The notes: generated from the sequence alone by a model not told the origin. A stretch of DNA of 64,000 bases from Cirrosporium novae-zelandiae (GCA_026023565.1 JAPETS010000019.1:310001-374000); one strand, 5' to 3'. Positions 396 through 51,871 are shown, counted from the stretch's first letter. A program made the numbers and translations.

Positions 396-1105
396 CTAAC
401 TGAAGATCTTTTCACTATACTTTCGTTGATAAGCTGTAGCAACACGATCCATTGTTGCAGAATCCGGTAGCACGTCGAACTTATTCGCATTCATCCTCCG
501 AATATAGTTGCTGTCCAGCGGTCCATTCTGCTTATCTCTCAGGTGTTTTAATATCGCAATAGCGTCATGCAGATCAAATTCGGCTTTTCGTCCTCTGTCT
601 GCAGAATATATCCTTCTTAACTTTCGTTCCAAAGCCCATTCAAGTGGCGCTGCAAGAACATGAAGGTTTGGCCCCTCCCAAAGGATAATATTTTGTTCCA
701 AGGCTTGCTCAAAAAGCTCCACTCTAGATGTCTTGGTGATGAATAATGCCAAATCTTCATTGATCCACTGATCATTGAACTGCAGCTTTCTTCCCACTTT
801 CTGTATTGCTTCATGAAGGGGTTCTTTGATATCATTGTCCTGTGCCCACTCGGGATCGAGAAGGTAATCGATATCGCCAGTAGCGTCGCGACTTTTGAGA
901 AAAGAAACCGCAAGAAAGCCACCAGCGGTAATGATTCTGATAGGTGAAAATGCGTAGAGAAAAGCATCCTTTCCTATTTCTATGTCAAGGGCTTCAAGAC
1001 CTAGGGCAAGAGGTGAGTGAGAGGAGACATTTGAGAAAGTTCACCATCTAACTCACCATTTTGAAAGTCCGCCGCATTGAGTAGCTCCTTGTTGTGGTGG
1101 GGCAT
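396..1105 (-). CDS. Nucleotidyltransferase-fold protein, AbiEii/MenT-like (about 217 aa, 2 exons: 1105-1057, 1000-396)
   Basis: ATG at 1105 and a GTGAGT...TAG intron (1056-1001) give a continuous frame MPHHNKELL...IITAGGFLAVSFLKSRDATGDIDYLLDPEW...WINEDL...ALERKLRRI...RKAEFDLHDAIAIL. The hGG, RxTxDhD, KL..R and DxxD motifs match the pol-beta/AbiEii-type NTase pattern. Confidence 0.8.
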
Positions 1106-3929: not shown

Positions 3930-4200
3930 CTTACCAAACAGCAGTTAGCTGGGCATATGGCCTCCAGTTCGAATAATATGCTCCATTCTAGTTAGAATAA
4001 CATGCCCTATTCCAGCTAGCTAGTTGGGTATGCGGCCTCCGACTGCTTATTATCTCTAATTTCTAAGCTCTTCTCAGTTATAATATGAAATCGTATACGC
4101 AAGGAATTCGAGGCCAAATTTGGGGTTTCGGGTACCTAGAATTAAAAATTTAGTCAAATGTTCAATAAAATACTCAGTAAAATACCTGGTAGAATGCTCA
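3930..4200 (+). repeat. Dispersed repeat (transposon relic); inverted homolog at about 39660-39815
   Basis: 4061-4200 aligns with the reverse complement of about 39666-39805, mostly with transition differences. Internal ~23-24 bp direct repeats at 3943-4040. Confidence 0.8.
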
Positions 4201-4878: not shown

Positions 4879-7815
4879 ATGGCTGCATCAAACAGCAATC
4901 GAATTAGTTCAACTATTGTTTCATATTCTTCTCTTCCTTCAGACAATGGTGCAGCCGAGGACAATGAATTACAAGATCTCGAACCGTCTATTTCCCAAAA
5001 TAATACAGAGGATACATATCCTCCAACAGCACAAAGCTATTCATCCTCCCGATTAAATCTTACAGCCAACAATCACGATGGCGAATCAAGCAATTTGGAT
5101 ATGGAGCAAGACTATTTCCTAGAACTCGATGGGTTCATAGTGTACGAAGAAGGTGGCCATTCTTTTACTTTGGTGCAGATTTGTTAATGTATTTCAGCTG
5201 GTACCAAACACCACAGATCGACCTCGAGCAACTTGACGATCGGAACGAGACTGCAAACCAAAGTCTTGACTCTGGCCGAACCTACACGCTGCTAGACCTG
5301 GAGCCTAGTCAATCATCGACGAGGGGTAGTGTAGAGCAGCCCCGGTTTTTTAAAAGTGATTGGTTAATACCATGGGTGCCGCAATTAGATCCAAACAGTC
5401 CAGAAGCAAATAAAATGAGGTCTTGGACTTCAAAACGGTCCAATGTCCTGATAGGAATGGCTTTACTCTCAACCACTGTTCTTGTTGTCAATCTCGTTGC
5501 CACTATAATGTTTAAAAAAACCGGGGATCCAGCCAACGATCTAGGAATGTTATACAGAGGCGACTGTATAACGGTTCGTCGATTAAGCATAGGAATTCAT
5601 GCTGCCATCAACGTTCTAAGTACTCTGCTCTTGAGTTCCTCAAATTTCTGCATGCAACTACTTTCAGCCCCCACACGGGCCGAGATTGACGAGTCACATC
5701 GAAAACATCAACCTCTCGACATTGGAGTGCCCAGTATTCGAAATCTTGCAGCTATTAGTTGGAAACAGAAAGCTGTTTGGGCTATCTTGGTGCTATCCTC
5801 TCTACCATTGCATTTTCTGTAAGCAGCACCGCTCGTGCTCTACTATTAGCGTATCTTACAATTCTCTAGATTCAATTCTGCAATCATCCCCACCCTCGCC
5901 ATCAATTCTTATGTTTACATTGCCGTGTCACCAGAGTTTCTCGATGAGGGCTCATGGAATACGTCCGCCACCGCGTCTACTTTGCTAAGTTTACCCTCTC
6001 CCTTGAATAATACCGCAGGGATGTTACAATCCTGGGACGATGCACCTTTAGATCTGCAAATGACGATTCATGAAATGCAAGTTGGGTTTAGCAACGATGG
6101 GGGTTTTGTCCATTTGGATAAGCTGACGTGCTTACTGGAGTACACAAATCTCTTTGGAAACCGTTCAGATGTGGTCATGGTCTCTAACACAGCACCTCCA
6201 GACAACAACTCGTTACTTACATATGGTTTGGCTAGAGACGCGACGTGGGATGAAGGCTTGACATTATGTTGGGATTCAAATAGCTTCGACTGTCTTAAAT
6301 TAGACCTATCTAATTTCCCAAGCGGAGAAGCAGGACGGGAGAAAGCAACAGCAAATTGGAATATGGCCGGATATAAGATCGATCATTGTCTTTCAGCCCA
6401 AAGGTCTACCGATGGACTTTGTAGCGTGGAATACTCCTTTTCCATTATGCTTGGTAAAGCATCCTTGGGATTTTTTCTTTCCCTCTTGATAAGTGCACCG
6501 AAACTGATCTATTTTAGTGGTCTGCATAAGCAATGCCCTAGTATGCTGCAGTATTTACTATACGATATATATCTTCTCGAATCTAACAAATCCACCTTTA
6601 TCCATATTAGGTGATGCCGTAGCTTCATTCCTGAGTCACCCCGATGCGACCACACAAAATATGAGTGCCATTGGAAAATACACGCCGTCGCGGGATCCCG
6701 ACTCGTGGCGAGATATTCAGCCGACCCGATGGGAACAACGCCGGTCGTTCTGGAAAAGCGCGGCTGGTGGGCGTCGGTGGTCCATTTGTTTAATATCGTA
6801 AGTTTCGATTAGAAACAAAATCTTTTTTTCTCGTGCTAAGTATAATATAGATGTGGGTTGATGTTCATTGCAGCCTTTACCGTATTGGTATGCGGTATTA
6901 GAAGTCTTCGTGGAACCGGCATCTATCCCAGCTTGAAGTCAATCCTGGATATGGGGTTTGGCGCTGTGAATTCTAGATCCTTCGCCAATAATATAGGACC
7001 TAAAAGTATGGTAAGTAATTAACCCCTCCACTCCCAGAAAACATCCTTTATAGTCTACCCACGCTCCTAAGCACCAACAAACTTCCCACACCTTATTTTA
7101 GGCATCCACGGTCCGGAGGCTGTATACCAGCGTACTCTTCGTAAACAGCTGGCAGTTATTTGTCTCCATCATCTACGTGAGCTGCAACACCGTTCTGACA
7201 TGCATGCTGGTGGCCGCCGAATGGGACACATTTGCAGAAAAATGGAAGACCCTGCGCGTTTCTGAACCCACAGGCCTCCGACGGTCGAGCTACTTTCTCT
7301 CCATGCCGTTGAAATTCGGATTACCATTCATGACATCGATGTCGCTGATACACTGGTCCATCTCCCAGAGCGTCTTTATTGTCAGTCTGAATCGGTTCTT
7401 CTCCAACGGCGTGGAGGATATGGAGAACCGCACCATCACGATCGGATACAGCGTCTACGCTATCATCGTATGTTAGTTAGCCTGTTTTTTTTATATATCT
7501 TCATACTCTTAAACTCTTTTTCTCCCTCTTTCACCAATCTTACAAACCCAAAAAATCACAGCAATCCTCATCGGCCTCGTAGTAGTCCTAGCACTGTGTT
7601 TCCTAGGCTTTAGACGCCACCGAAACAATCCCCCCTTCGATGCAACCAACAGCGCCGTAATCAGTGCGGCCTGTCATCCTCCGGCCGGCGACGCCCAGGC
7701 CCATCTATCTTGGGTGAGATGGGGTGCTGTTTCTTGCGGGGAGGATTTTGAACGGTGCTCGTTCACCACAGCCAGGGATGTCATGGCGCCAATACCTGGG
7801 AGGTTATATTTGTAG
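4879..7815 (+). CDS. Multi-exon DUF6536-like fungal membrane protein
   Basis: Motifs LYRGDC...INVLSTLLLSSSNFCMQLLSAPTRAEID...LDIGVPSIRNL...SSLPLH, LRVSEPTGLRRSSYFLSMP...IHWSISQSVF and C-terminal SAVISAACHP...VRWGAV...CSFT...PIPGRLYL* (TAG 7813-7815). Several GT-AG introns. Confidence 0.85.
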
Positions 7816-10577: not shown

Positions 10578-12289
10578 CGTTGTGGATCTGAAGTATGAGG
10601 AAGGTTGAAGTATATGGTGAAACAGTTGATATAAGAAAGAATGTAGATATTAGAGTTCAACTTCAGTGTTAAGGAGGAGAAATATACCTGCGCATGACAT
10701 GGTATTTATAACCAGCTGAACAGGAGACATAGCGATGAATGTACCTATAACGAATAAAATACAACCGAGACCGAGCTGTCACAAAGGGAAAGATGACGGG
10801 AATATCTTAGATTGAATATTGAAATGAGGATACGGGGTGCAAATTGAATGCCGGAAATGCACAGCTTTGGCGACGATCTTGCAGCTCCAATCGGTACTAC
10901 CAAGATGGAAGGAATTTCGGGTCCTAAAAAGCAAACAAGTCCGTTTGAACCGAAGACGACTTCTGGGAAAAGTCGTTCCTCTAAAACCTCTATGCGTATT
11001 GTATCGGAGTTTAAGAGCATGAGGAATGAAAACGACGGCAGGTCTATGGAGTCAAACACCCTATACCCAAATGCCAAGGCCTTTCGGGGGTGCATTCTAT
11101 TACCTCCTAAGCCACGGTGGTGCAGTATACCCAGTCGCTATTCTCCGTAGCAGCAGTTGCTGTCCTTTAAGGAAATGAACAGTCATTGCATACACAGTCG
11201 ATGCATTCATTACTTTCTCAAGCCTTCAATAGAATAGAATAGGCTAAACTCGACTGCAAATTGTATTCTTTATGGTATTTTCTGCCGGCTTCTTTCGGTT
11301 GCTGCTAGCCAATGGCCCTTGACTATACTATTGTGGCTTCATGTGGCAGAACATTGTATTAAATCTGAGTTGTCGAGACCGAAATGAGTCAGGGTGTGCT
11401 CAATGGCGATGGAAAGTCCTTTGGATCCTCTGGAATGATTTGAGCTCTTCCTTATTGAAGACACAATCCACCATGGATAGTTGTTAATTTAGTCTACAGA
11501 CGAGCGGCGAATATAAAGGGACAAGCACGGACCAGGTGTGTGGCCACATGATCAGACCTCAGGCATTATAATATTTCTTAGTTGGAGGCATTGCTTCTGC
11601 TGTCTTCCTTTTGACGCGAATGAGCGTCGAAGCAACTCCATATTTTCTTATAGAGAATTGGCCAACTATGCATAGCTTCAAATGTACTATCTCAACTACC
11701 TAGGTACCTAGGTAGCTAATTGATTCTATATATCTCTTAAGACTTGCCAACGTCCTCAAGAGGGCAAGATTCTAAATAGCACCGAGTTTCTCACTGTCAT
11801 TAGCTCAACCAAAAATATCAATTATCTGATCAAGTAGTTGAGCCGAAGGGTAGTTGAAGAACGATGCCCTTGTTGCAATCCGTATGTGATGCATATGCGC
11901 TTTTTTGAGAGGACATGGGAGACTTGCGCAAAACGGTTGACATACTCGTGTAATTTCTATCCTCTTGATAAAAGGTCTTTGACTCTCTTGGAGAGTCTCT
12001 TTAAGATCTCCATCTAGCACCATCCTCGCTTTCTCTACCATGAGGAGATATTGCCTTGAAACTCTTGACCACACAGGATCCCATATTCCAATGCAAGTCC
12101 ACTCCTTCCTGTCGTTGACCAAACTCCAATACCATCCTTCAAACACTCCAGGGTAAGCCTAAAGCCTTAGAGTATAAATACCACTTTCCCCTAGTGCTTG
12201 ACGAGACACGGTCATATTAGCAAACACATACGTCGAATATTCTCTATCAAAACGTCGCCACCTTTGTATGAATACTCAGTAGTCCTCCA

Positions 12290-29602: not shown

Positions 29603-31794
29603 TTAAAATTCCACATAACCATCTTTATGCTCTATAGGAGGAGGAGGAGGAGGCTCGAGCCTCCGTTGTGTTGTTGTTGCTGAAAGGATCGTATTATTTA
29701 TCCTCTCCGCTCGTAGCAACTGCATCATAATTTCCCGCTGTTGGTCCTGTGGTGGTGGTGATTCGAGCGAATAATCCGAAGAAGAGGAAGAAGCGTCAAC
29801 GACACCAACGAAAATCTCGTCATCCGGGGAGACGGATTCGCGAATGACGGTGCTGATGTCCGGGCTGGACATGCAAAGCTTAATAACCGCTCTGCCGTTG
29901 TTGTTGGCGTTGGCTCCCCCTTCTTCGCTTGCGAGTCCGCAGAGCATGTTGGAGACGTAGCGGAGTTCGTCTTGATGTTCGGTTTGTTGCTCCAACAGGT
30001 TGACCGTATCGATCACGCAAAAGAGGGTGGTGGGAGTCCCAGTTAGGCTTCGGACAAGAGTACCAAAGAGCTCACAGAGGGTCTGGAGGTCTTGTTCTGA
30101 AATGCTAGATAAGTCACTTCGAGTCAAAACAGAGCAGAGACCGAATTGGCGCGCGGCGAGAAGCTGGGCGATGAGGCTGCGTAGCATTCCCCGCAGACCA
30201 ACGGATCTGTGCCTTTCACAGAAGTATTGGAGGTAAATAACATGGTCGATGCCACTTAGTCCGAGGTGCATGGAGGTGACGAGGAGGGAGAACGGCGAGA
30301 CTTTGGAGCAGATCTTGCTATGTATAAGAAGAGCTTTGGATTCGCTTGATTGAAACCATTTTCTAAATCGGGGATTGCTTAGGACTTGTTGGACGACACG
30401 TTGGTTGGGAAGGTCAATGGCTTGAGCTATGTCCTGATAGAATTGGCTGTCGACTACGACCTCGTTGAGATCAATTCCTATTGATTGCATCAGCTCGGCT
30501 TGAGATATGGGCGCTTCAGCAACCTGATTTGGCGTTCGTGCGCGATAGTTCTCTATAACTCGGGCTTGAGCATCTTTCGTCTGTTAGGATAGGTTCCCCT
30601 AGAGGAAGGAGCAAAATCCCTCCACTTACCAATGATTGTTCTGTACATCTGGTTCCCTAGTTAAAGTCAAATAGCTGTTTTTGAAGGTCTATAGGCCTAG
30701 GATCAATAACTGCTACCCACATTGTGACTGCTGGACAAGAAGTCGAAGATCTTGAGAAAAAGAATTCAACACATTCTCCATTCCGTTCGGGCCAGTAAGG
30801 GCTGATTGAATTATCCCCACCCCCTCGCTCATTTCCGTGACAAGGCCACGTTGGATCATATTAACTCGGGATTTCAAAATTCGCGAGAGATCCTGGACAG
30901 CAGCGAACCTCTCTCTGAGATGTTTGCCATACTGGCCTTGCTGGAGTAACGCCTTGAACTTCGGTCCTAGAACGTGTCAGCAAGAGAAACCGGTCAATGT
31001 TCCAAGACATACTGATGGCGCTTTCCCTCAGCCATGTGATGCTGCCTTCGATTGCAAATACCAAGGCGGCGTAGAAATCCGTGGCCGTCTCATTCAATCT
31101 TGCATCCTTGGGATGAAGTTGTCGAAATTCGTACGTTACACATAGCGTTTCTGGAACACAAGAAAGTTCATTTAAAATGGTCTCTCGGAGGTCGCTTTTA
31201 GCTTTCACTGCCTATGGTTGGATTAGCTAAAGGCTTTTAGTGGCAGCAATGTGTGAAGAACACGGACTCCGAGTATTAACTTAAGTCCTCCGCAAACGAA
31301 AGATGTGTACTCATTGTTTGGGAGCAGGCCCATCCATGGATCAACTGCTCCGTCGACGGTAACATCGCCCAAGTTTCTCATTCCCCTGGTAAATATGCCC
31401 CTCCATCCCTGTGCTCTAGAATTGTAGTCCTTTATTGCCCATGCGGCTTCGTTCAACACATCATTCCACGTGTGGCCTGCTTCGATTTTGAAGTCCTGTA
31501 GTTCTTTGTTGGTACCATATTCACGTAGCGTTGATAGGTATTTGCGGATCTCATCGTAACAACTCGAAGTCCTGTTTCGTGCGTTTTTTACTGACCTTTT
31601 TGTGTCAAAGAAAAGAATTCCATTTCTAGCGCAAAAGGCTCAATTTAAACTTACTTGGAAGAAGGTTCATTAAGCACAACCACTTTATCGTTCAACGGGT
31701 TTATGATCATTTCGTTCATGCTGTCTGTTAACAGTGCATTGGGATGGGTCACATAGTCTTGGATTACTTTTTCAATCGCTGGTCGTATTGCCAT
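29603..31794 (-). CDS. Truncated NACHT/STAND-like protein with N-terminal helical domain and degenerate P-loop (about 636 aa; exons 31794-31655, 31595-31268, 31211-31013, 30966-30721, 30656-30630, 30573-29603)
   Basis: Spliced frame is stop-free (1911 nt). N-terminal HTWNDV...LLPNNEYTSFVCGGLKLIL helical domain; NACHT-like NPRFRKWFQSSESKALLIH, YLQYFCERH, MLRSLIAQLL, LCELFGTLV, LFCVIDTVNLLE and IKLCMSSP, but no GxxGxGK[ST]. Confidence 0.8.
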
Positions 31795-32597
31795 TTTTCG
31801 CACTCGTAGATCAAAGTTTCTGAAATGCACAAAGGAGACCACAGGAGATACGCTCTGTGAATTTGATGCGCTGTAGATACTATAACCGAGGTTCTAAGAG
31901 TCAAGACCTGCCGTAGGATCGAGAGGGCATCGGTATCAAAGCTAATGTAACTGTCCGAAAATAAAGGCAGCTGAGGATAGCCTCACAGAAGAACACTGAT
32001 ACCAGTGTGGCCAATCACTAGCGCTCTTGGGAATCGAACCCAGCCTAGTATTTATGGCATCCGACACCCACAACTGCAAAATACTAGGGTGCGAGTATTT
32101 AGGAGAGATGGTGGGGTCATGCATAAGACCCATGTAAGATTCGGGTACTCTGAGAATATCAGCGCTCGCACCCACATTTTCATATGAAGGTCCAGAAAAC
32201 TTGATTTCTAACTATAAATTACTCGCAGCTAGAATTGAGTTGCTCTTATAACTGGTTGCTTTTTTGCATCGCCCCAACTATATTGTTAGCTGAGTATTTT
32301 CAATGATTAAAAATTCATTTAAAAGAGTCCGGAAAGGCTGCAGCCTGACGAAATTGCATCACCGTCGTGGTATTGTAGGCTTACTGGGATTCGCTTTCGG
32401 AGCTTGGCATCTCAATATCGTCACCGTAAATAGATAGAGGCTGAAATGTTGCAGATTCCTATTTCTTTTATAGGAAACCTGTCTCCGTAGTATTAATAAA
32501 GGTCGATTGTGTCAACTCGTAAAAATCATCAATTATCAATGTTCTTCAATAGATTTAAGTTTCTTCTTACCTGAATTGAATCCATTCGTCTCCTATA

Positions 32598-35500
32598 ATG
32601 GCCGATAGTAGCTTATCAAATGAGGTCAAGGAGGTTACTCCAACTCTGCTGCATCACAGCGCAGAGAAGAAAGAAGGGACGGCAACTTCTAAGCTGATTG
32701 TGGAGGTGGACGACGAGAGTTTGACAGCAGAGCACAATGCAGATGAAAGTGTTTTCCAGACCGAAAACCTCGATACTGCTGAACAAACACCCGGAGAGAG
32801 GCAGCAGCCTAGCAATGAGGAAGATGAGATCCAGTCCGATTCAGAAATCGACACTGATACAGAAATCGACACTGATACAGATGTAAAAACGCGGAGGAAA
32901 GCAGCAGCTGACAGACTGAAACAACATGGGCGATATTACGAACTCACGGAGAAAAGAATAAAGTACCTAGAAAAAACTTTGAGAAAATTGGAGCAACACA
33001 TTTTGAAGAAGGATATCCCTCCGCCTGTCGAGGCCAAACCAAAGTGGCCTGTACCTGCAACCCCTGAACTCAAGCTTATAACTTGGGCTCAGTACATTGA
33101 ATCGACATCGAGACCTGTAACTCCGGGGAAGTATTCTGCTATTGAGGTACTCACTGGAACTCCCAAGCGATGGAATGACCCAGAGCCTGCCGATGGAAGG
33201 CAAGGCGGTGGAACGAATTCCCGGGACGATGTTGCAAGCGAAAGCGCCCCGCAGATTTTCGAACTGACCCAGAAATCTCCACCGGGGCCACCACCAAAAC
33301 CTTCCTTGAAAGATTTGCCCGACCGCATTAGAATCAAATCCATCGCGATAATTGAGGTGTTGGAGGATATTGCGGGGAAATCACCTTTGGACGATCATGA
33401 CCCTTTGGTTATTCTACGGCCATTCAAGATTCTCGTTTACTTTGAAAAGGAGATCAAAGCAAAACTTAGAGATCTCACGTGGAAGTGGAATGTCGATAAA
33501 AGTCCTAAATCTGAGAATAATGTGAACACTAATCGTGGCAAGAAATATGCGTCAAATGACATTGCCGCAAATGAAACTGGATCCGAAGATAGCAGTACCG
33601 AAAGAAATTGGCTTGATAGCAGAGAGACGATGGAAGACATGCGTGTCCTGGTGGAGTTCATGGACAAGACTCTGAACACGGCTGTTAAAAAGTTCTCCTC
33701 TCCAGAGCTACGGCGAATAGCATTTCAGGATTTGTGGTATCTTTTCAAACCAGGAGATGAAGTATGGGTGGACAAAAACCCTCAAAAGGTTTGGAAAGTA
33801 CTCAATGCTACTGGCGGACGTCCGTATCTTAGACCTGACCATGGTAGCGACAAAAATGACGTCTGGAGAAAACGCCGCCAAATGTATGAGACTGGAGCAC
33901 CTTTCGTTATTGACTGTTACCACGTGAATTTCGATGGGAGGAGATTCGGTCCAGTCCAAGGGCAATTCAGAATATCAAAGTACGACGGAGAGAAGGATAT
34001 TGCCACCCTCGAAGTTCATCCACTGCGGTGCGCGCGTGAGACGAGAGAGCGCCTGTTGGAGAAGGGCCACCGGTTTTTGAAATGTACTAAAGTCGCCCAG
34101 TACTACTATGTGGGCCGATCTCTCGACCCAAGGCGTTACGCGAGAGATGATTACATGCGGCTAGAGGACATTGAAAGCGAAGTCATGATTGATTTTGACA
34201 GAGCCTTTCAAGAGAACCCCGCCTGGATTCCAAATTTGGGCTTGGTACCTACGTTCAAACAAAGCAGTAGGGAAACAGAAGAGGCGATAATATATGAATT
34301 CATCGAAAAGGACAATCATTGGGATCAACAATATGCGGACAAATTACTCAACGGGCAAGAAATACTCAAAAAGGAGATCCAGCAGCTTCATCTACGTGCA
34401 AACCAACTACACGACGTCGATATTCTATTGCTTCCTAATCATGCATTTGGGTTTGTTCTAAGAAGCCGGACCTGGGGTGAATGAAGAGCAGCCACCTTCA
34501 GCCTTGTTACACTAACATATCTTGTAGCCTGCTTCTCTACAGACGAGAAATTGCTTAGAAATATCACCCCCCAGAAGTCAGGTTATGATCAACTACATCT
34601 CCGACCAGGCCAGAAGGAACTAGTTCACGGTCTCGTCAAGTCTCACTTCCAACGCAAGGAAAGAACAATTAGTGGAAGAGAAAATAGTAGTTATGATATA
34701 ATTCGGGGGAAAGGTAAGCTTCCATTGAACATCGGTCCCCGTGGAAATGAACTTGCTAAGTTGAAATAGGTAAAGGGCTCATCATCCTCCTTCACGGTGC
34801 TCCGGGGGTAGGAAAAACTGCAACAGCTGGTAGGTAGAGTGTAACTCCTATACCTTTCATGGTACTCACATCAATTCGCAGAATGCATTGCGGAATATCA
34901 CGGCAAGCCTTTGTTTCCAATTACCTGTGGTGAGCTAGCAGCCATATCTACAAGTGCACCAAAGTCCATTAACAGTTCCTATAGGAGATCTTGGCACAAC
35001 GGCGGAAAGTGTCGAGAATACACTGAAGAAGAACTTCTCTATGGCACAGGCTTGGGATTGTATTCTTCTTCTTGATGAGGCGGATGTTTTTCTGGCTCAG
35101 CGCTCAAAGACAGATCTCGAGCGCAATGCACTTGTCTCAGGTGAGAATTTCCGGATGATACATACCGTCTGTCAGTGATTCAAAGTCGCTAATTTGCCCG
35201 TCCGATAGTGTTCCTCCGAGTTCTAGAGTATTATACAGGAGTCCTTTTCCTGACGACAAATCGAGTCGGAAGTCTGGATGAAGCGTTCAAGTCTCGTATC
35301 CATATGAGCTTACATTATAAGCAGCTGGATTTGAATCAGACATCGCGTATCTGGAAAACTAATTTAGAGAAAACGTTACAAAGAAAAGACAACCCACTTA
35401 AAGTACAACCAGACGAAATCACGCAATACGCAATGGAGCTGTGGGAGGAGAACCAACGTGAAGGGAGGTCTCACTGGAATGGGCGACAAATTCGAAACGC

Positions 35501-36290
35501 TTTCCATACTGCCGTCGCCCTAGCAGAGCACGAAGCTGACGAAGCAAGTGCCAATGGACAACCGAGGGGCCCCCCAACCCTAAAACCAGGTCACTTCACC
35601 AAAGTCGTCGAAGCAATCATGACTTTTGACGAATATCTTCAATCAGTACAAGGCTTCTCGGACGAAGAACTGGCGATCTGGAACACAAATAGGAATGATA
35701 AATTCCAGCGGAGTCATAGGACTGCACCAATCGGCACTTATTGGCACGAACAAACGCAAGAGCCCCATACTCGGTTTCATGCGGGTCTTCCATCTTTCCA
35801 GACACCCACCAAGACCCCGCCAACGCAACATACATCAAATTTCCAGAATTTCAATAGGACAGAGCAGCATGGAGCTCCATACCAACAGCCTGGCATGACG
35901 TCCTATCCAAATTACCAACAAGATTCACTGGGAACGCCAAGCCCACTTCCACATAGTCAACAAAGAAGTGTCAATAGTCCAGTGCCTTCAGTAGGATTTC
36001 CAGGAAACACGGCTTATCCATCGCCCCCAATAGCTAGCCACCACGCGAGGAATAGTGGCATGCCTTTCCCGACAAGAATGCTTAATGCGGATGCCAGCCA
36101 GAGCGGTTGGGATGTCCAGTCTTCTTCAACAGAACCAAAACCTCCAGCACAGGGGCAACCACATAGCTTGGCAACTAACATTGAGTATGATCATCTGCAA
36201 AATTCGTATGAAAGTATGCCCAACCAGCCAATGAGCAGGCATGGATTACCAAATCCAGCCTCAAATCCACCGAGCTACACCGGTGCGTAG
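32598..36290 (+). CDS. Fungal AAA+ ATPase with DUF7025-like N-terminal region (about 1136 aa; exons 32598-34476, 34528-34713, 34770-34829, 34882-34929, 34985-35140, 35209-36290)
   Basis: IAFQDLWYLFKPGDEV; GKGKGLIILLHGAPGVGKTATAE (Walker A); ILLLDEADVFL (Walker B); VFLRVLEYYTGVLFLTTNRVGSLDEAFKSRIH; WNGRQIRNAF lid; P/Q/S-rich tail. Spliced frame is intact (3411 nt). Confidence 0.93.
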
Positions 36291-38110: not shown

Positions 38111-38636
38111 TTGAAATATAAATAAAAGATATAACAGTAACTTCGGTGAGCGAATGTATACAGAAAATGCATTTTTTATTGGTCCACCAACTCTCCTCTA
38201 GGTAACATGCGTTATAGATAGCATATGTTCTTTATAGAGTTTGTTTCAAAACGTTGTAATTTGTTGGTTGACAGCATCTTTTGTCTTTTTTGCCCCCTAT
38301 GACAGCCTCAATCTTCGGTTTTCTAGCTAGAGTACACTCCATTTGTCTCTTGTTGATATAGCAGAAAAGCCAAAGTTAGCTGTGATTCAAACGCCGAAAA
38401 CCAGAAATCAGTATTGGCAGCACATGCAAAACTTCAGAAGCCTTGACCTGCAACAAAAGACATATGACTGAGGCCAATAAACCGGTCACCTATTTAGCTA
38501 GCGATTCCCCCCCCAAGGAATCTATAAATTTGTCTCCCATTCCACTTTCCATTATTCAAATCAAAACCTTGCTAATCGTCCTTTCTTATCTCGACTACCT
38601 TCATCGACTCTAGAATCCCTAATAACTCCTTTAAAA

Positions 38637-39250
38637 ATGTCTCAAAATCTCATCCGTTCCACTCCTGAAAATCCCATCCAGGTCATTCCTGAAAATTCAA
38701 TCCATTCCATTCCTAACAGCCTTAATGTTCAATCTGTTGGCGTGGTAAGAATTGTTTGCCAAAATTGGGAGGATGTGATGCCTATAGCGCCATTCAACCT
38801 CAATCTCTGGAGTATATATCTCCTACATCAATTTGGCTCAGTCCAATTCCACATGACGCTCACTGCCGATGGCCTGAACAGCAGCTTGTTTGTCGAAAGC
38901 TCTTCATACCGGATACCGCCTAACACCATAGCACTGTGGGATTTCTATTGTCGCTTGGATACCACCGTTGGACATTTCAGGAGTGTCATTCTTGCGCAAG
39001 AGCTCGATAGATACTCCATGCCTGATTGGAGGGGTTGCCGTTGGTGGATGTCTGTAAGCCCTAAAATCTCCCTTCATACTAGTCATTAACGTGGAGTTCC
39101 AGATACATCATTATAAAAATTTGGACAGAACTTGGCTTGATGAAACCGCAAACCGTAACTGGGGAAACGATCGAATCCTTCATCAGCTTCCACTTCTCGA
39201 ACGGTAACCCTGGCAATCGACGAGATATGGTACAGGGGAACTTCTTCTAA
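38637..39250 (+). CDS. Small fungal protein (DUF7770-like, tentative), 2 exons (38637-39049, 39103-39250)
   Basis: Core NLWSIYL...SVQFHM...WDF...TTVGHF...RY...GCRWW joined through a GTCTGT...CCAG intron to IYIIIKIWTELGLM...DMVQGNFF*. Confidence 0.7.
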
Positions 39251-39254
39251 ACGA

Positions 39255-39410
39255 CAGTGAAAGGAATAGACTAAACCAAATAAACGGTCTACCCTAAACG
39301 GTCTATAGACCTTGAACCGACGACCAGACCAAGCTTTTTCATAAACCGACCAGACCTTGATTACCCAAGGCCTATCCGATGTATATAAATACGAATTATA
39401 TAGTGGGGGA
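39255..39410 (+). mobile_element. GACC-rich MITE-like element end; homolog inverted at 44975-45093
   Basis: Shares CGGTCTATAGACCTT, AAACCGACCAGACCTTGATT and TGTATATAAATACGAATTATA with the reverse complement of 44990-45093. Confidence 0.8.
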
Positions 39411-39519
39411 TATCGAAGTTCGGAATTTTTGAATTTTGGGTTTAACCTAAAGCCAAAAAGGCCCCCCCCCCCCCAACGCCCCGAATAGCCCCGAATACCC
39501 ACCCGTTGTACCCCCTGAG

Positions 39520-39815
39520 CACTGAGGCCCTGACTGAGCTTGCAACTGAAGCTCGTACTGAGCTGCAACTGAGGCTTGCATCGAGACTTCGACTGAGGCT
39601 TCCACTGAGGCCCTGACCGAACTTATGACTGAGCTTCTAATTGAGGCTTCTATTGAGGTTCGCATTAACCATTCTACTAGGTATTTTACTAAGTATTTTA
39701 TTAAAGATTTGACTAAATTTTTAATTCTAGGTACCCAATACCCCAAATCTGGCCTCGAATTCTTTGCGTATACGATTTTATATTATAGTTAGGAAGAGCT
39801 TAGGAATTGAGGACA
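39520..39815 (-). repeat. ~12-bp minisatellite (ACTGAG core) running into a dispersed repeat shared with 4050-4200
   Basis: Periodic ACTGAG units; the reverse complement contains GAGCTTCAGTTGCAAGCTCAGTCAG, matching 37885-37909. The distal part is homologous to 4061-4200. Confidence 0.8.
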
Positions 39816-41512
39816 ATAAATTGCAGAATACTCTTTGGTGGAATAAAAGAAAAATCAACACCAAAATTTCGGTTAAAACCCTGGTCTAGTGTTCATTGCT
39901 AAACGAAGGGGTGTGGTGGTGGTGGAGGAGGCGATGAGGCATCTATCATCGAGGCGTTGGACAAGGAGTCTTTCATTATGATATTGTGAAAGAGTTTCAA
40001 GGTTGAGCGTTTATATAGGCAGTTGGGGATAGAAACTAGGATTGATAGAAGCCTTAGGCAGAGGAACTAGAAATTATTGAATTGGACGAAGTGTTTATAT
40101 TGTCTAGTTGGTTGTCTTTCGTTCCTCTGTCTTTGGTTCTAGAAACCTAGGAAGTCTATATATAAAACTGGAAGGGTCAGACTAGCCTGAAAAGGATAGG
40201 CTGAGCCTGAAGCCTTAGGCATTAGAAATCAAAGCCTTGACACTAGAAAATAAACCCCCAGACCGTAGGGCTGATACCTCAGGCAGCGAAAAACGTCAAC
40301 TCTTTCACAATATCAGAATTTAATTCGGATGTTTTTTCATGTTGCCTTTTTTTTGTCTTGAGTTGTTCTGGATTTGGCTTCATCTTAAACGGAGGTGGTT
40401 GGTTCTTTCCAATTCTCTCATCATTGCTCCCCTTATTTATCGGATTGAAGTGTTGGGGAGTGTTGGTCCCCCCACAGTGGTGACCCACAAATTTTACATG
40501 AGATTCTTAGCCCACAAGAATGAATATCCTTATGTCTCTACAACGTTAAGATGCATGGATATGTGTGTGTGTGTAACTCTGCGGAGAAGTTAGATTTAAT
40601 TTTATTTTAGGCGAGAGTGTTTTGTTGGGTGTGTAACCTGTAGGACTATAGTAAAAATATCGAAACCAAATATGGCTTATAAAGGTTGCATGTTCGGATT
40701 TCTATTCAGAAGGTTCAAGTTTGGCTTCTCGGACTGTTTGGACTTTCATGCTACTTACATGGTAGTGGAGTCTTTGCGGTTGGTTGGTTGATTGGTTGAT
40801 TGATCGCTCATCTTTTGCACTGTGCGCGCGTTCGTTTCCATGCCGATGGGCAAAATAGGGTTGGTGAGATAAACTTAGGTATAAAATCGAAAGCGGAGTA
40901 AATATTCTATATTGAGAAATGGATGATAAAGTAATCAATATAGTCATAACGTAGGTAAGCAGATATTACCATGGAGGTTTTTGTAATAAGACTAAATACT
41001 AAAAAATCGATGATGGATAACATATTGTACTGCTGTACAGAACCAATGAACTTGAGATATTTAAGGAATTGTAAAACAATTTAGAAGGAGGCAGATGAAA
41101 TAAAAAGCATCCAAGTAAACGCACGGATAACCCGAGTCAATTTTAGGGGTGGGAATGTTCTTAGATCTAGATGTGTGCTATGAATGTTCTAATGAGAACC
41201 ACGTTGGCGATGTCTGATAGAAGCTGTCATATGCTTATTTTGACAAAGTTTAACACCATCCAGCTTCAATAGCCAACAAGGAATCACTGACTCAATACAG
41301 TGGGTTCCCTATCCTGCCCTCACCTAGGTTCCAGATCTAGAGACAAGCATCTTAGATTGATAGACATGTGTTGGCTTTTCAGATGGATAAAGAAACACTC
41401 GTTCATTAACATCTTCCAAGCCCATTCTCGTTGTTGATGTCTTTTAAAGCCAAAGGATTCCTGATATCCGATTTCTCAATGGATCCACGTACTATTCAAA
41501 TTTGATACCAAC

Positions 41513-44833: not shown

Positions 44834-45093
44834 CAGGGCAAAGGACCAGACCATTTAATCAATTTGTCTAAGAGTAGATTCACAGCATTTTATCTTATCT
44901 ATTATCACGTGGAAATAAAATACCGAGCCTCGACACCTCCCAGAAATTTCAACACCACACTCAACGCTATAAAAATATACCCCTTTATTTTATAATTCGT
45001 ATTTATATACACCAAATAGACCTTGAGCAATCAAGGTCTGGTCGGTTTAAGGTCTATAGACCGTCTATTTGGGCTGGTCTATTCACAACACTG
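44834..45093 (-). mobile_element. GACC-rich MITE-like element
   Basis: Right end GGTCTATTCACAACACTG matches the 29351 TIR; left end CAGGGCAAAGGACCAGACC; interior homologous to 39255-39410. Confidence 0.7.
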
Positions 45094-47297: not shown

Positions 47298-50010
47298 TCA
47301 TTTCGTCTTACTACCACCCAAGGTCAAAACCCCCCTCAAGCTTTCTACCTCGGGACTAACAGAAAAGTTGCTTTTCAGAGTCATAACACTTGCCCTCTGC
47401 CCGATATCTACCAAATCCTCGATCTTAGCTTCAGAATTCAATGCTAATCCCGCCGTTATGACACCTAGCATTGTATCTCCGGCACCGTTAACACTGACAA
47501 TCTGGTCTTCTGGGATTAATTCTGCGGGTGGGAACATGCGCATATAAATTCCTCCAATATCTTTCAGAGATTCGCTGTGGTTTCGACTCACGATGTACGG
47601 GGCTGATTCTGGAGAAGTCAAGCGCCCATCTCCAGCTCGGAGGAGCTGGGTTAATAATACACCTTCTTGACCAAGTTTGGTCAAGATGCAGGGCATGTAT
47701 GGTAGGAGTTGGATACTCTGCTGAGGAACACCAGAATCAACGAGGTCTGCACTGGTAATTCTTGCTAGAAGGTCGTGAGATCCAGCACTCGACAAATTTA
47801 AAGAATCAATGATTTGCCACCAGTCATCTTGTTCAAAATACTCAAGCTCGCGAGCAGCATCATGGATATGGAGGAGCTCCATTTTGTTTGGAGTGATTAA
47901 GTCAAGGTTATGGAATGGAGCAACTCCCAGCTTGGAGTCTTTAGTCCGGTCTCCGAGTACTCTAACAGCTTTAGCTGTCGAAACAGGCTCAAAGGCAACT
48001 CTTGCCCCTGACAATTTACCAACCCGTAGCCACTTTTGCAAAGTGAGTATATCCCAATTTCCATCTACAACCACATATGATGGCTTCTGATGTAAAAGTG
48101 ATGGCTTCCACACTTGGTCAAATGTCCCCGACAAATGTTCAATTATTTGCATGTCTGCCATACCAAGGTGAAGATTCTTCTTCGTGTCGTTGACAGCCAC
48201 ATATTGAGCGGTTCGTAGACCCGTATCTTCACTAAGAATTTCAATACCCGTTGTGCTAAGGCCTCGTTTCTTAAGGTGATTCAAGGCAACATTTCCAAAC
48301 GCATCGTCAGCTATAGCACTACATAACTGCACAGACGAGCCTGCTCGATGTGCTGCTAGCGCCAGATTATAACCGACACCTCCTACATCTTGTGTGATTA
48401 CCGCAGGATTCGATGTATGAATGACGGGTTCCTCGTTGGATTTTGATGATGTCAAGGGACTATAGTCGCAAGATAAGTCAATAGCAATGGACCCTGCAAC
48501 CACAACATCTAGCCCAGAAGAATTGGTAGAACCGAGGTCATGTATACCGTCTGGTGTTTTTTCTATAGTTGGGGGAAAATATGAATTCGCTCTATAGGGG
48601 TTCTTTTCCTCTGTGTTCACCGTTTCCTGGCGAGATTTACTATTTCACATACATTTCCATTAGTTGTTCCTATACAACAATTCACTTCAGAGCCATCTCA
48701 CCGATCGAATATAGGATCATCCTGAAGCTCTAGCTTTTCCAGTTCTACTGCAACCAAGGTTCCTCTTTTTACATTTGATGCAACCAGAACTTTGTTGGCT
48801 GACACACTCTTTCCTTCAGTAAGTTCTTTGATCTTATTGAGAATAAAAGGTGTATTTGCACTGCCTGTTATTCCGGCTTCTTCTGCTTCGTGGACTGCTT
48901 GAGCAATTACCCGATCCATATCCGGTTTAGGTATGGAGGCCTCTTCTGGAACAGGATTGGCTAGCAAAAGGCCGGAGGATACAGGGAGCTTCAATTGCGC
49001 ATCTACATAGGAAATCTTATTAGCTTATCTGAACCATTGACAATAACTATTGGTTGGAAAAACGTACGGACTATAGCAGCTGCTTCAGCTTCATTCTGAA
49101 TCGTGAAAGGGCTTCTAACTCCGCTCTCCCTTGACCAGAAGGCCGGAAAATCAACACTGCCTTCCCGACCATCGGCAAATGTACCAACACCCACTCCTTG
49201 GGTTTCAAGGTATTCAAGAGTGCGAGGGATATCGAGGAAGCTCTTGCATCCACTACTAATGACAGCTACAGGAGTTCTCCCAAGCTCGACGAGATCAGCA
49301 GATACATCCATGCTGGTCTCCCCTCCTTTGTGGACACCTCCTACAGGTCGAACTTGTTAGCTATTGAATCTAGAAACCGTTAAGGGCTTCCTACCAAGGC
49401 CCCCAGTAGCAAATATCTTAATGCCAGCCAAATGAGCCAACAATGCAGTACCTGCAATTGTAGTTCCTCCATTGAGTTTCTTATCTCTCACGCTCTGAGG
49501 GACTATTAGTATTCAAACAGATATGGAACAAATAGAAAAAGCCAAACAGTACCGACCCACAAGCAAATGCAAGATCACGTCTAGAAATCTTGCGGGTATT
49601 TTTGTTGCCTGCGGATTCTGTAAGCCTGATCAAGTCTTCAGTCTCCATTCCAACCCTTGCAACTCCATCTAGGACCCCTATTGTAGCTGGTATTCCACCA
49701 TTAACTCGGACAACAGATTCCAAGAGAGATGCTAGAGCAACGTTCTCCGGATAAGGGAAGCCTATAGAGATAATAAGCAAACCTCTTGTTGCGCAACGTT
49801 TCCAATCAATTTACCATGGGTATATATCGTAGTTTCAAGAGCAACGACAGGCTTTCCACTCCGCAGCGCATCTTGAACCTCATCCAAGACCTTAAGAAAT
49901 CGATTATTAGTGGTTAGATGTCGTCGCTGAGCAATATTTTGAACTTTTGATAGACATATTGCAGAGCGCCCTGTATGCCTAAGCAATGCAGGCCTCAATG
50001 CCCAAGCCAT
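47298..50010 (-). CDS. Bifunctional pseudouridine-5'-phosphate glycosidase (PsuG/IdgA) and PfkB-family pseudouridine kinase, multi-exon
   Basis: KPVVALETTIYTHGFPYP, GGTTIAGT, FATGGLGGVHKGG, DVSADLVELGRTP, LLANPVP, NTPFIL; PfkB part GGVGYN...VSVNGAGDT. Confidence 0.95.
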
Positions 50011-50287
50011 TGGAGATATAAGTGGTATAGGATGCTTATCTAAGAGGTAAAAAATGAAAGATTAATTGCGATTGCGCAGAGGGAACGGACTGGCGGAATT
50101 ACGGATCTACCGATTTTCCGATGATAAACCCCAGACATGTGGACACTTGGAGCTTTCTGACATCCAACACCAAATATCTTGAAAGCTTACGCAATGACTT
50201 CCAATAGCAATTGAATTCCTTTTTCCATTTTCTTCTATTTTATAATTCTTAGATTTGGGGAAGGGTGTCGGCGCTTAAGACGCCAAA

Positions 50288-51871
50288 ATGAAGTTCTCTA
50301 ACTTCCTCCCCACTATCCTTTCGCTATCCTCATTATTCTCCTCTATCGCAGCAGACACGAATACCAGCTCTTCCCAACAGATACTCAACAATGAGTTCAA
50401 GCCACCTCAAGTGTTCAAGAATGTCAACCTCCTAAGAATAAAAAATTTGGAAAAATCCTATGTCCGAGAGACAATCAATGTTGTCATTGAGAATATCGAT
50501 TCGGAACCGCAAAGCGAATACTACATACTATTTGAGGGAAATGAAATAGGTCATGTTGGAGGGCTTGAAGTCAGAGACAAAAAACGTCCAGACGAGCCAG
50601 CTTTCACATCCGAAATTGTCGGAAATGGATCTTACAGGTATTTAATTCATACTTGCGCCCCATTATGCTAGAGCCGCCACCTAATCCTTTGCCAGCTCCG
50701 CTCAATACTATATCGTTCATCTTCCAACGCCCCTTTCTCCTAAATCGCAGCAAACACTTAGTATAAAGTACAATATCCTCTCTCAGCTGCGCCCCAAACC
50801 CGCATCCATCCCTCAAACTGGGAATCAACATATTCTTTACGAATTTTCCTCCTACGTTCCATCTGCTTATGAAACTGCCTCCCAAAAGACCAGGATCAAG
50901 GTCCCCACAACGAAGATTTCACCCATCACTGGATCTCATAAGCCTGAATCCGAGGGTCGAACGCTTACTTATGGACCTTTCTCTGAGCCAATCCCGGCTT
51001 TTGAGACCTCCCCCGCTTCGATTCGTTACGAATATACTCACCCTCTCCTCACAGTACCCTCCCTGCACCGTCTCCTTGAAGTCTCACAGTGGGGTGGCAA
51101 CCTTGCGACGGAAGAATCCTATGACGTTCGCAATCGTGCGGCCAATCTCACCAACCAATTCTCCCGTGTTACTTGGCAGATGAATCAGTACTACAACCCA
51201 CCCACAACGGCCTTGAAAGACCTTCTCATACCGCTCGAGCGCGGCACCTCTGACGCCTATTTCACAGACGATGTCGGCAACGTCAGTACATCAAATTTCC
51301 GCCCTGGGACCAATACCCGTAATGGGCTCATTGAGCTCAAGCCACGGTATCCAGTTTTTGGAGGTTGGAAATACACCTTCAAAGTTGGTTGGAACTCAGA
51401 GCTGTCATTTTATCTGCGCAGTCTATCTCTACCTACCCCTACTTTTGTGCTGAAGGTCCCCTTCCTTGAGGGTCCAAAGGTTAGCGAGGGAATATCGTAC
51501 GAGGAGGTGGAAGTCAGTGTTGTGCTACCCGAGGGTGCGCGGAACGTGAAGTTTGAGACGGAGATTCCTATTACGGGACATGAGATCACTCTTCACAAGA
51601 CGTTTATGGATACTATTGGAAGGACACAATTGAAACTAAGGGCTTCGAATGTTATTGATGAGGATAAGGACAAGACATTGATTGTAAGTCGGGTCCAAAC
51701 TGACTCGAAAATGAAAGAATTTATGCTAATAATGTGCAGGTAACTTATGAATACCCCGCTGGTGCCATGTACCGCAAACCCCTAACGGTCTTTGCTAGCA
51801 CATTAGCCTTGTTTGGTGCAGTATGGTTATTATCATGTTTAGATACAAGTATAGGCAAAAAGGCTACTTAG
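50288..51871 (+). CDS. OST1: Oligosaccharyltransferase subunit ribophorin I, 3 exons
   Basis: Signal peptide; NLEKSYVRETINVVIEN; EVSQWGGNLATEE; YFTDDVGNVSTS; ELKPRYPVFGGWKYTFKVGWN; HKTFMDTIGR; C-terminal TM helix and KKAT ER-retrieval motif. Confidence 0.95.

Follow-up and report, generated by a model that had tools for sequence, protein, structure and literature searches.

A head-to-head pseudo-NACHT and AAA ATPase gene pair in Cirrosporium novae-zelandiae, a candidate two-gene unit of Pezizomycotina

Introduction

In an assembly of Cirrosporium novae-zelandiae, a minus-strand gene for a pseudo-NACHT protein and a plus-strand gene for an AAA ATPase diverge head to head. The arrangement raises the question of whether the two genes are merely neighbors or form one unit, and what such a unit might do. 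To our knowledge, few of the NLR-like genes of fungi have been assigned a function. NLRs that combine a Goodbye-like/DUF7708 N terminus with a NACHT (NPHP3_N) domain and Ank, WD40, or TPR repeats are surveyed for fungi in PMC9815663 and PMC12258605. The definition in PMC12258605 calls for an NB domain together with a canonical C-terminal repeat domain, and by that wording the pseudo-NACHT family described here is not an NLR, as it lacks the repeats. Surveys take repeats and an active NB domain as the defining features of NLRs, so the family falls outside them.

Results

Two intact genes diverge from a common spacer

The window, which is the whole 64,000-nucleotide stretch of DNA that was analyzed, contains two intact six-exon genes, as originally predicted and now borne out by ORF and splice models. 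The pseudo-NACHT gene (M1834_002615) lies on the minus strand at 29603..31794, with its ATG at 31794 and its stop at 29603, as placed by our own model and by mapping of the NCBI protein P0001 (636 amino acids [aa]). Both models have six exons but disagree over intron 1 and in the region of the small exon 5; our own model gives intron 1 an implausible length of 29 nt, whereas the NCBI model implies 59 nt. The predicted exons concordant with P0001 are 31794-31655, 31595-31268, 31211-31013, 30966-30721, 30656-30630, and 30576-29603. On the plus strand, the AAA ATPase gene runs from an ATG at 32598 to a stop at 36290 (predicted exons 32598-34476, 34528-34713, 34770-34829, 34882-34929, 34985-35140, and 35209-36290) and encodes a product of 1136 aa; its five introns are 51 to 68 nt long, all GT..AG. 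Between the two ATGs, the intergenic spacer (31795..32597), a presumed bidirectional promoter, measures exactly the 803 bp claimed for it.

The pair had also been assigned to a repeat-rich accessory island. This does not hold, as core genes lie on both flanks and short repeats are few in the window. Upstream are PAN2, a DHHC palmitoyltransferase, and Rap1, and downstream are PfkB/Indigoidine_A and ribophorin I. Among the 49 window ORFs of at least 110 aa, no second DUF7025/AAA match was found away from the partner position.

The pseudo-NACHT protein has a degenerate P-loop and ends shortly after its nucleotide-binding domain

The helical N terminus and NACHT-like nucleotide-binding domain (NBD) that had been proposed for the minus-strand product are supported by matches to DUF7708 and NPHP3_N and by the AF2 model. 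The DUF7708 match (Goodbye-like, a label taken from automatic cluster names) covers P0001 residues 141-232 and, at 27.5 bits, exceeds its cutoff of 25 (30938..31315, minus strand, interrupted by introns); it is enclosed in a modeled helical region of residues ~47-322. The protein also has long coiled helices. Structural matches to residues 160-265, modeled within the longer protein, were generic helical bundles, none specific to MLKL/HeLo, and a profile of the pseudo-NACHT alignment A1 searched against PDB sequences returned helical-bundle noise only.

A STAND/NACHT-type nucleotide-binding fold was assigned to residues 338-571 (29801..30502, minus strand) from Pfam, AF2, and structure comparison. 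Pfam NPHP3_N matches residues 375-510 with 34.7 bits, well over its cutoff (24.8), and PF05729 NACHT does not match P0001 at E<=1. The AF2 model reaches a pLDDT of >90 over residues ~390-570. When compared via this model, the NBD matched Avs3 with a Z score of 12.1 (rmsd 3.6, 186 aligned residues), ORC/Cdc6 with Z of ~11, ZAR1 with 10.3, and Apaf-1 with 8.8, while a Foldseek search with the model gave weak ORC/Cdc6 matches alone (E>=3e-3). The NBD is thus predicted, on its modeled structure, to have the ASCE P-loop NTPase core fold of the STAND/AAA+ type.

The catalytic loop of this fold has diverged. The Walker A motif GxxxxGK[ST] is absent from P0001, and the degenerate Walker A region (30287..30331, minus strand) reads LLIHSKICSKVSPFS, with the family consensus LLVHGN..(R/K)(I/V)SPLS. 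The original prediction that the P-loop lysine is missing is therefore loosely right: there is no GK[ST] Walker A, but LLIHSKICSKVSPFS does hold a lysine, outside a P-loop context. A Walker B-like strand, LFCVIDTVNLLE, is found at 29990..30025 on the minus strand (family consensus FCxIDGIxxYE); its hydrophobic stretch ending in an acidic residue is LFCVID in P0001, and D502 and E508 are nearly invariant across the family. Further core motifs of NACHT domains are retained as well. As predicted, C-terminal sensor repeats are lacking, with neither repeats nor a folded domain past about residue 575 of P0001 according to Pfam and AF2. The ~60 residues that follow the NBD have a pLDDT of <50 except for one helix, no winged-helix (WHD) Pfam match was found in P0001 after the NBD, and no Ank, WD40, TPR, or HEAT repeats were found in P0001 or in 44 aligned family members.

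P-loop loss is a property of the family

The pseudo-NACHT family comprises 720 representatives at E<=1e-3, of which 93 remain at E<=1e-10. The genera of its named members we take to span at least five Pezizomycotina classes. Family features were scored in 151 proteins, namely P0001 and 150 listed relatives, and among these the loss of the P-loop is family-wide: a canonical GxxxxGK[ST] occurs in a single protein, P0077, and there it is part of an additional NACHT domain of canonical type. The short architecture also recurs, with 43 of the 151 proteins being 540-760 aa long and having the match at the C-terminal end. DUF7708 is matched in 15 of the 44 aligned members, and the mean column identity of the alignment is 19%. 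Cirrosporium has two family copies, the window gene and P0034. No members were found in the genome-contig and viral-contig collections scanned, nor was a pseudo-NACHT-AAA fusion protein found among 70 proteins scanned. A conserved, GYVEF-like acidic-aromatic tail was considered as a general AAA-recognition tag and rejected, being confined to the closest subclade.

The neighboring gene encodes a classical-clade AAA ATPase that lacks the aromatic pore-loop residue

The plus-strand product had been described as an AAA+ protein with intact Walker A, Walker B, and arginine-finger motifs, and all of these are found in the translation: Walker A (GAPGVGKT, 34796..34819), Walker B (ILLLDEAD, 35062..35085), and sensor 1 (LFLTTNR) with the arginine-finger region (DEAFKSRI) at 35244..35300, all on the plus strand. 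DUF7025 (33708..34031, 78.4 bits), AAA, and AAA_lid_13, a fungal AAA+ lid domain (35328..35651, 74.7 bits), follow one another in this order. The Pfam AAA match itself is partial (18.6 bits) because the domain is split by introns; the intron-free homolog on L001, a metagenome contig described below, scores 68.9 bits and has all three domains. A low-complexity C-terminal tail rich in Q, N, P, and S (35652..36287, plus strand) is absent from the L001 homolog.

The best solved sequence relatives of the ATPase are VAT, p97/Cdc48, NVL/Rix7, Afg2, fidgetin, and Msp1 (E of ~1e-9). Judged by sequence, the window ATPase belongs to the classical AAA clade and is predicted from its motifs to be catalytically competent. 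With the AAA unfoldases of this clade it has Walker A and B, sensor 1, and the arginine finger in common; the aromatic residue of pore loop 1 is theirs alone. At the pore-loop-1 position (DLGTTAESVE, 34987..35016, plus strand), placed by motif reading and by aligning the L001 homolog to VAT, the window protein has GTTA and the L001 protein GMTP, versus KYYG/KWVG in VAT, which makes substrate threading doubtful. The N-terminal region (AF2 pLDDT of 62.8) gave no informative fold match (best Z of 5.7; Foldseek E>=0.04). Homology searches with the ATPase returned 4 and 16 matches, with few named proteins among them.

The pairing recurs on a metagenome contig

L001, a 12-kb metagenome contig, carries a DUF7025-AAA-lid gene on the minus strand and a pseudo-NACHT gene on the plus strand, again head to head, with an ATG-to-ATG spacer of 458 bp. 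The AAA proteins of the two loci are 32.5% identical over 925 columns (E of 4e-128) and the pseudo-NACHT proteins 23.8% identical over 522 columns. The flanks differ, being an SDR gene and a PAN-domain ORF on L001 and Rap1 and DUF7770 in the window. Intron positions differ between the AAA genes; one intron is common to the pseudo-NACHT genes. The two spacers have no motif in common beyond what shuffled sequences give, and no further DUF7025/AAA match was found in the rest of L001-L004. L002-L004 were left out of the neighbor count, as they have no upstream flank. Comparing pseudo-NACHT fragments with AAA fragments by the lengths of their contigs produced no match; the near-equal lengths 22431 and 22432 belong to different sources and were not counted.

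The family tree assigns a clade of its own to each of three pseudo-NACHT genes, those of the window and of L001 and the Fusarium proliferatum gene P0042 (SH-aLRT 90/100, 97, and 100). As the second Cirrosporium gene, P0034, lies inside the L001 clade, the window and L001 pseudo-NACHT genes are paralogs, not orthologs. On the AAA side, the window protein scores 408 bits with its L001 counterpart and 430-449 bits with P0002, P0003, P0170, and P0004, relatives of unpaired status. The L001 protein is not the closest to the window protein, and so a distinct "paired" AAA clade does not emerge.

A Fusarium pair is adjacent and co-expressed

P0042 is FPRN_00134 of F. proliferatum, and its neighbor FPRN_00135 is an AAA protein by its database label, "related to TOB3" (PMC10786395); adjacency is read here from consecutive locus tags and the AAA subtype from the label. 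This label is given to 16 genes of 15,254 annotated F. proliferatum loci (PMC10786395), which puts the chance of such a neighbor at ~0.1% per side and at ~0.2% for either side. In the kmt6 mutant, FPRN_00134 has 890/854 reads versus 58/79 in the wild type (WT), and FPRN_00135 has 717/702 versus 50/65, whereas the other neighbor, FPRN_00133, has 12/8 versus 1/0 (PMC10786395). The two genes of the pair are therefore expressed at equal levels and derepressed jointly on loss of H3K27me3. Six other TOB3-like genes of F. proliferatum have neighbors of mixed description with mostly unmatched expression (12 of 30 possible neighbors checked), indicating that most AAA paralogs may not be paired.

The recurrence sample is small and consists of three loci, the window, L001, and FPRN_00134/00135. 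That homologs are rarely neighbors had been named as grounds for giving up the pair, and the outcome is the opposite: wherever the neighbor can be identified (3 of 3 loci), it is an AAA gene. The original prediction of a co-inherited unit is supported by these three informative loci from three pseudo-NACHT clades, and its expectation of co-expression is matched by the Fusarium pair in two conditions. Recurrence in 3/3 loci together with co-derepression in Fusarium supports both co-inheritance and co-regulation.

Discussion

We lean, by a small margin of belief, toward a conserved divergent two-gene unit of Pezizomycotina in which the pseudo-NACHT protein and the AAA ATPase work jointly as a split NLR-like switch, with a function that is possibly cell death related. 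No functional description of the pairing had been known when it was first noticed, and none was found in the literature searched either, which likewise yielded no paper on DUF7025, DUF7708, their Pfam/InterPro numbers, or a fungal NLR-AAA gene pair.

The alternative that survives best keeps the coupling and moves it outside immunity and cell death, so that the pseudo-NACHT protein would be an adaptor or cofactor of the AAA ATPase in stress, proteostasis, or development, with its NLR ancestry being historical only. Linkage and co-expression are silent on the process, and the N-terminal region of the pseudo-NACHT protein has no specific cell-death-domain match. DUF7708 and NPHP3_N, however, otherwise occupy the N-terminal and central positions in fungal NLR architectures. 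The family is also rich in paralogs and diverges fast, as its low column identity and its two Cirrosporium copies indicate, which is typical of conflict genes, although the window locus itself sits amid core genes. Derepression in the kmt6 mutant fits a nonimmune pair as well, as 13 of the 16 TOB3-like AAA genes of Fusarium rise there, as genes in facultative heterochromatin do in general. We regard a nonimmune role as a minority reading that deserves serious attention.

Less probable, and in our judgment unlikely, is that the two genes are not functionally coupled at all, but belong to two expanded families that happen to use a bidirectional promoter within a block that was copied or retained, adjacency reflecting descent and chromatin state. 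Both families are indeed large, the window and L001 spacers lack a common motif beyond chance, and the AAA proteins of these two loci are not an exclusive pair in the BLAST ranking. Such passive linkage is hard to reconcile with an arrangement that is kept in three clades although protein identity is down to 24-33% and neither the flanks nor the AAA intron positions agree, or with the low chance (~0.2% per locus) of an AAA neighbor in Fusarium, where the levels of the pair are matched in two conditions and the other neighbor is nearly silent. Very improbable is a reading of the NACHT-like gene as what is left of an NLR in decay, truncated and lying beside an unrelated AAA gene, for even though Walker A, the winged-helix domain, and the repeats are all missing, the ORF is intact, the short architecture and the replacement motif are kept family-wide (43/151 full-length, 540-760 aa), and the NBD is confidently folded in the AF2 model.

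If the pair is a split NLR-like switch, the two proteins would act together, with the ATP-dead STAND protein as an oligomerizing scaffold or effector arm. In the original prediction, the dead STAND-like protein would be an adaptor, substrate, or effector, and the AAA protein would provide the ATPase activity. Goodbye-like domains have a helical-bundle core in common with HeLo/MLKL, and it is this likeness that suggests the scaffold or effector role. The AAA ATPase would be a dedicated, nucleotide-driven partner that either assembles the STAND protein or keeps it disassembled. Facultative heterochromatin may keep the unit switched off until conflict or stress is signaled, and the most likely output of the unit would be cell death or a non-self response. 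The fullest version of this reading, in which a widespread Pezizomycotina "split NLR" has an ATP-dead STAND scaffold with a Goodbye/MLKL-like execution domain, is switched in trans by a dedicated AAA+ protein, undergoes duplication and inheritance as one block, and is silenced by H3K27me3, we put forward as a tentative proposal that is less likely true than not. If true, fungi would have a new class of cell-death or immune module, one whose nucleotide switch was relocated to the adjacent gene; if the coupling is functional, it would show that an NLR-type machine can draw on a nucleotide switch provided in trans.

Comparison with known systems shows where the pair stands. Plant head-to-head NLR pairs are divergent immune gene pairs in which both partners are NLRs, whereas here an NLR-like gene faces an AAA gene. 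In TRIP13/Pch2-HORMA and in Cap6-HORMA of CBASS, an AAA+ remodeler acts on a noncatalytic signaling partner, but the partner here is an NPHP3_N protein and there is no HORMA protein. The analogy finds no sequence support among the 60 best solved AAA relatives listed, of which VAT, p97, NVL, and Afg2 are the closest and which do not include TRIP13. Closer to home, the N-terminal and NBD Pfam families of P0001 are the same as those of Goodbye-like/NACHT fungal NLRs, its atlas neighbors are clusters of such proteins, and its relative P0077 carries a pseudo-NACHT copy ahead of a canonical NACHT-Ank. Unlike these NLRs, P0001 lacks Walker A, repeats, and a third domain of winged-helix or helical type, and it ends ~60 residues past the NBD. 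In NWD2/HET-S-type neighbor pairs (PMC4344463, PMC9815663), the signal passes from an active NLR to an effector of the HeLo type via a common amyloid motif. The window pair resembles them in consisting of adjacent genes that are presumably inherited jointly as a single signaling unit and differs in that the NLR-like partner is ATP-dead and its neighbor is an AAA ATPase.

The window ATPase is a member of the DUF7025-AAA-AAA_lid_13 ATPases, called "related to TOB3" in Fusarium, for which the literature searched gave no described function and of which only some may be paired. The pairing offers a testable two-gene hypothesis for two large uncharacterized families, the short DUF7708/NPHP3_N proteins and the DUF7025 AAA ATPases, and Fusarium provides a tractable system, with both genes already co-derepressed there.

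A divergent pair of six-exon genes

The pseudo-NACHT gene lies on the minus strand (ATG at 31794, end at 29603) and the AAA ATPase gene on the plus strand (ATG at 32598, end at 36290), both with six exons as the original prediction described, and the 803-bp spacer it gave is exact as the ATG-to-ATG distance. Lineage look-up places Cirrosporium novae-zelandiae in Pezizomycotina, class Xylobotryomycetes. The AAA gene encodes 1136 aa, and each of its five introns (51 to 68 nt) has GT and AG ends and a plausible branch site. For the pseudo-NACHT product, P0001, the NCBI protein (636 aa; [quoted passage not shown]) and our own gene model are identical in start, stop, and exon count. The two models disagree at intron 1, 59 nt at NCBI versus an implausible 29 nt in ours, and again around a 27-nt exon.

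The pseudo-NACHT protein and its family

Pfam finds DUF7708 at residues 141 to 232 of P0001 (27.5 bits, cutoff 25) and NPHP3_N at residues 375 to 510 (34.7 bits, cutoff 24.8). An AlphaFold2 model built from 44 family sequences has a mean pLDDT of 72.7, with a helical N-terminal half, an alpha/beta domain modeled with confidence (about residues 390 to 570), and no folded part beyond about residue 575. A search of PDB representatives with this model, run independently of Foldseek, aligned residues 338 to 571 to STAND and ORC-type nucleotide-binding domains (NBDs), with Z scores of 12.1 for Avs3, about 11 for ORC/Cdc6, 10.3 for ZAR1, 9.4 for MalT, 9.1 for NRC2, and 8.8 for Apaf-1. The expected Walker A site reads LLIHSKICSKVSPFS, and the Walker B-like strand LFCVID is retained. 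The predicted NACHT-like NBD without a P-loop lysine is broadly borne out by the STAND-type alignments and the Walker A site, where a lysine occurs outside any P-loop context, as is the absence of C-terminal sensor repeats by the unfolded C terminus and by Pfam, which detected no repeats in the 44 aligned members. In P0001, an NLR-type N-terminal domain precedes a STAND-type fold that is ATP-dead, and the NLR-defining Walker A motif, winged-helix domains, and repeats are missing.

Searched exhaustively with phmmer, the last exon of the gene matches 720 cluster representatives at E<=1e-3, of which 93 reach E<=1e-10. Among P0001 and the 150 listed matches, 43/151 share the same short architecture (540 to 760 aa, with the match at the C-terminal end), and GxxxxGK[ST] occurs in one, P0077, where it belongs to a second, canonical NACHT-Ank part behind the pseudo-NACHT copy. 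In the 44-sequence alignment, the consensus at the Walker A position is LLVHGN..(R/K)(I/V)SPLSxxCA, followed by FFCGxH, RSLIAQLL, and FCxIDGIxxYE. Judged from these sequences, absence of Walker A is a trait of the family, not decay. Pfam assigns NPHP3_N to 38/44 aligned members and DUF7708 to 15/44. Named members come from Circinaria, Sarea, Elasticomyces, Scytalidium, Penicillium, Aspergillus, Diplodia, and Fusarium, plus a second Cirrosporium gene. In a protein atlas, 13 near clusters are of the DUF7708+NPHP3_N type, all from Ascomycota, and some of them bear the automatic name "Fungal STAND N-terminal Goodbye domain-containing protein."

P0077 itself (1032 aa) carries a pseudo-NACHT-like stretch (121 to 311) ahead of a canonical NACHT domain, with GKPGTGKT at 389, and of ankyrin repeats. 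Two explanations fit: use of the dead domain as an N-terminal module in a genuine NLR, or an annotation that merged two neighboring genes. A C-terminal acidic-aromatic motif (DGYVEF, DDGFVEF, EGYxEVDFDxGN) is seen in the closest pseudo-NACHT relatives, namely P0001, P0006, P0008, P0013, P0034, and the metagenome locus L001 (window 29606-29623, minus strand; L001 about 10650-10699) and is absent from the wider family.

The AAA ATPase

The AAA protein clearly belongs to the DUF7025/AAA_lid_13 family: Pfam places DUF7025 in exon 1 (78.4 bits), AAA_lid_13 in exon 6 (74.7 bits), and the AAA core across exons 2 to 6. The spliced product carries GAPGVGKT, ILLLDEAD, TTN, and DEAFKSRI, in agreement with the intact AAA+ motifs originally predicted, and is by its motifs a competent AAA ATPase. 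Its nearest solved sequence relatives are classical-clade AAA proteins (VAT, p97, NVL, Afg2, Rix7, fidgetin-like 1, and Msp1; E about 1e-9). At pore loop 1, however, KYYG/KWVG of VAT aligns to GMTP in the intron-free L001 homologue, where the window protein has GTTA; it therefore lacks the aromatic paddle of threading unfoldases, though its ATPase motifs are intact. Disorder is predicted for the first 235 residues, with the exception of one long helix, and the DUF7025 region is predicted to adopt a beta-rich fold, for which structural searches gave no informative match. The protein ends in a Q/N/P/S-rich tail of about 210 aa (35652-36287, plus strand) that is absent from the L001 homologue.

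Recurrence of the pairing

A metagenome scan with the pseudo-NACHT family alignment found four loci, three of them uninformative because they start inside the gene or are only 1.1 kb long. The fourth, L001 (12.2 kb), has a plus-strand pseudo-NACHT with an NPHP3_N match and the degenerate loop DTISPLS, and immediately upstream, on the minus strand, a DUF7025-AAA-AAA_lid_13 gene. We model the AAA gene as three exons encoding 1001 aa and the pseudo-NACHT as two exons encoding 652 aa, with an ATG-to-ATG spacer of 458 bp. Between window and L001, the AAA proteins share 32.5% identity over 925 columns (E 4e-128) and the pseudo-NACHTs 23.8% over 522 columns. The L001 flanks (SDR and a PAN-domain ORF) are unlike those of the window, as are the AAA intron positions; one pseudo-NACHT intron, after GGLKLIxG, is common to both, and comparison of the two spacers revealed no common motif above chance.

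A pseudo-NACHT tree was generated from 46 rows (the 44 aligned sequences, the L001 model, and P0178), leaving out 107 other listed representatives that were fragments or length outliers. The window protein groups with P0006 (SH-aLRT 100) within a 6-row group, L001 falls in a 16-row clade (SH-aLRT 97) together with the second Cirrosporium gene, P0034, and Fusarium P0042 falls in a 21-row clade (SH-aLRT 100). With P0034 in the L001 clade, the window and L001 pseudo-NACHTs count as old paralogues, yet both are paired. The window AAA is slightly closer to P0002, P0003, P0170, and P0004, which may or may not be paired (430 to 449 bits), than to the L001 AAA (408 bits), and an exclusive clade of paired AAA proteins is therefore unsupported. 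No fused pseudo-NACHT-AAA protein occurs among 70 proteins scanned.

P0042 is FPRN_00134 of Fusarium proliferatum, for which expression was taken from supplementary file 1 of PMC10786395. Its neighbor FPRN_00135 is "related to TOB3 (AAA-ATPase family)," adjacency being read from consecutive tags and AAA subtype from the database label. As 16 of the 15,254 annotated loci carry this label, the chance that a gene has such a neighbor on one side or the other is about 0.2%. Read counts in the kmt6 mutant, which lacks H3K27me3, versus the wild type are 890/854 versus 58/79 for FPRN_00134, 717/702 versus 50/65 for FPRN_00135, and 12/8 versus 1/0 for the other neighbor, FPRN_00133 (PMC10786395). Among the TOB3-labeled genes, 13/16 are up in this mutant (p<0.01; PMC10786395). 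For six of the 15 others, the 12 neighbors comprise nine "uncharacterized" genes and three related to GABA permease, a phosphonomutase-like protein, and subtilisin, and expression is mostly unmatched between gene and neighbor.

As to whether homologues adjoin elsewhere, the check proposed with the original prediction, the pairing is present at all three informative loci (window, L001, and Fusarium; a sample of three), with a divergent layout at the window and L001. The linkage is thus conserved, and the two genes are jointly expressed in Fusarium. Counting against this reading are the small number of loci, the AAA bit scores, the neighbors of the other TOB3-like genes, the absence of a fused form among the proteins scanned, and the spacer comparison.

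In the same Fusarium table (PMC10786395), raw counts of the TOB3-like FPRN_13668 are >100-fold higher in the mutant, and FPRN_05086 and both its neighbors show a strong joint fall.

A possible joint function

Joint action of the two products is our inference, with the pseudo-NACHT as an oligomerizing scaffold or the effector arm; according to PMC9815663, Goodbye-like domains have a four-helix core in common with HeLo/MLKL, their death activity being unproven. The AAA protein would provide a nucleotide-dependent step that either assembles its partner or continuously takes it apart, and a switch or clamp role seems likelier than threading because the pore-loop aromatic is absent. Joint derepression after H3K27me3 loss fits silencing in facultative heterochromatin, but such genes form a general class, as the rise of 13/16 TOB3-like genes in the mutant shows. 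TRIP13-HORMA and plant paired NLRs serve here purely as analogies. A literature search, with subscription journals and closed supplements outside its coverage, turned up no paper about these domains or any fungal NLR-AAA gene pair.

Surroundings of the pair

The repeat-rich accessory island of the original prediction did not hold up: the stretch has only a few short tandem or dispersed repeats, and core genes such as PAN2, Rap1, and ribophorin I flank the pair. Outside the pair, ORFs of at least 110 aa include PAN2, a DHHC palmitoyltransferase, Rap1 (Myb and C-terminal domains), and an FAD-binding oxidoreductase upstream, and PfkB plus Indigoidine_A and ribophorin I downstream. Two 150-nt arms 35 kb apart (4047-4196 and 39670-39819) are 88% complementary, and a second matching pair is 59 nt long (39342-39400 and 44991-45049); these may represent a short dispersed element in several copies. 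An array of 12-nt ACTGAG-rich units (39520-39669) lies within minus-strand ORFs (39089-39782), which a DUF7770 ORF (38502-39086) adjoins. PfkB kinase and Indigoidine_A-like ORFs stand in tandem on the minus strand (47301-49356) and may be one fused gene, followed by ribophorin I at 50279-51740. Two further ORFs, DUF6536 (5004-5819, plus strand; 157.7 bits) and DUF7582 (399-1040, minus strand), belong to fungal families without known function.
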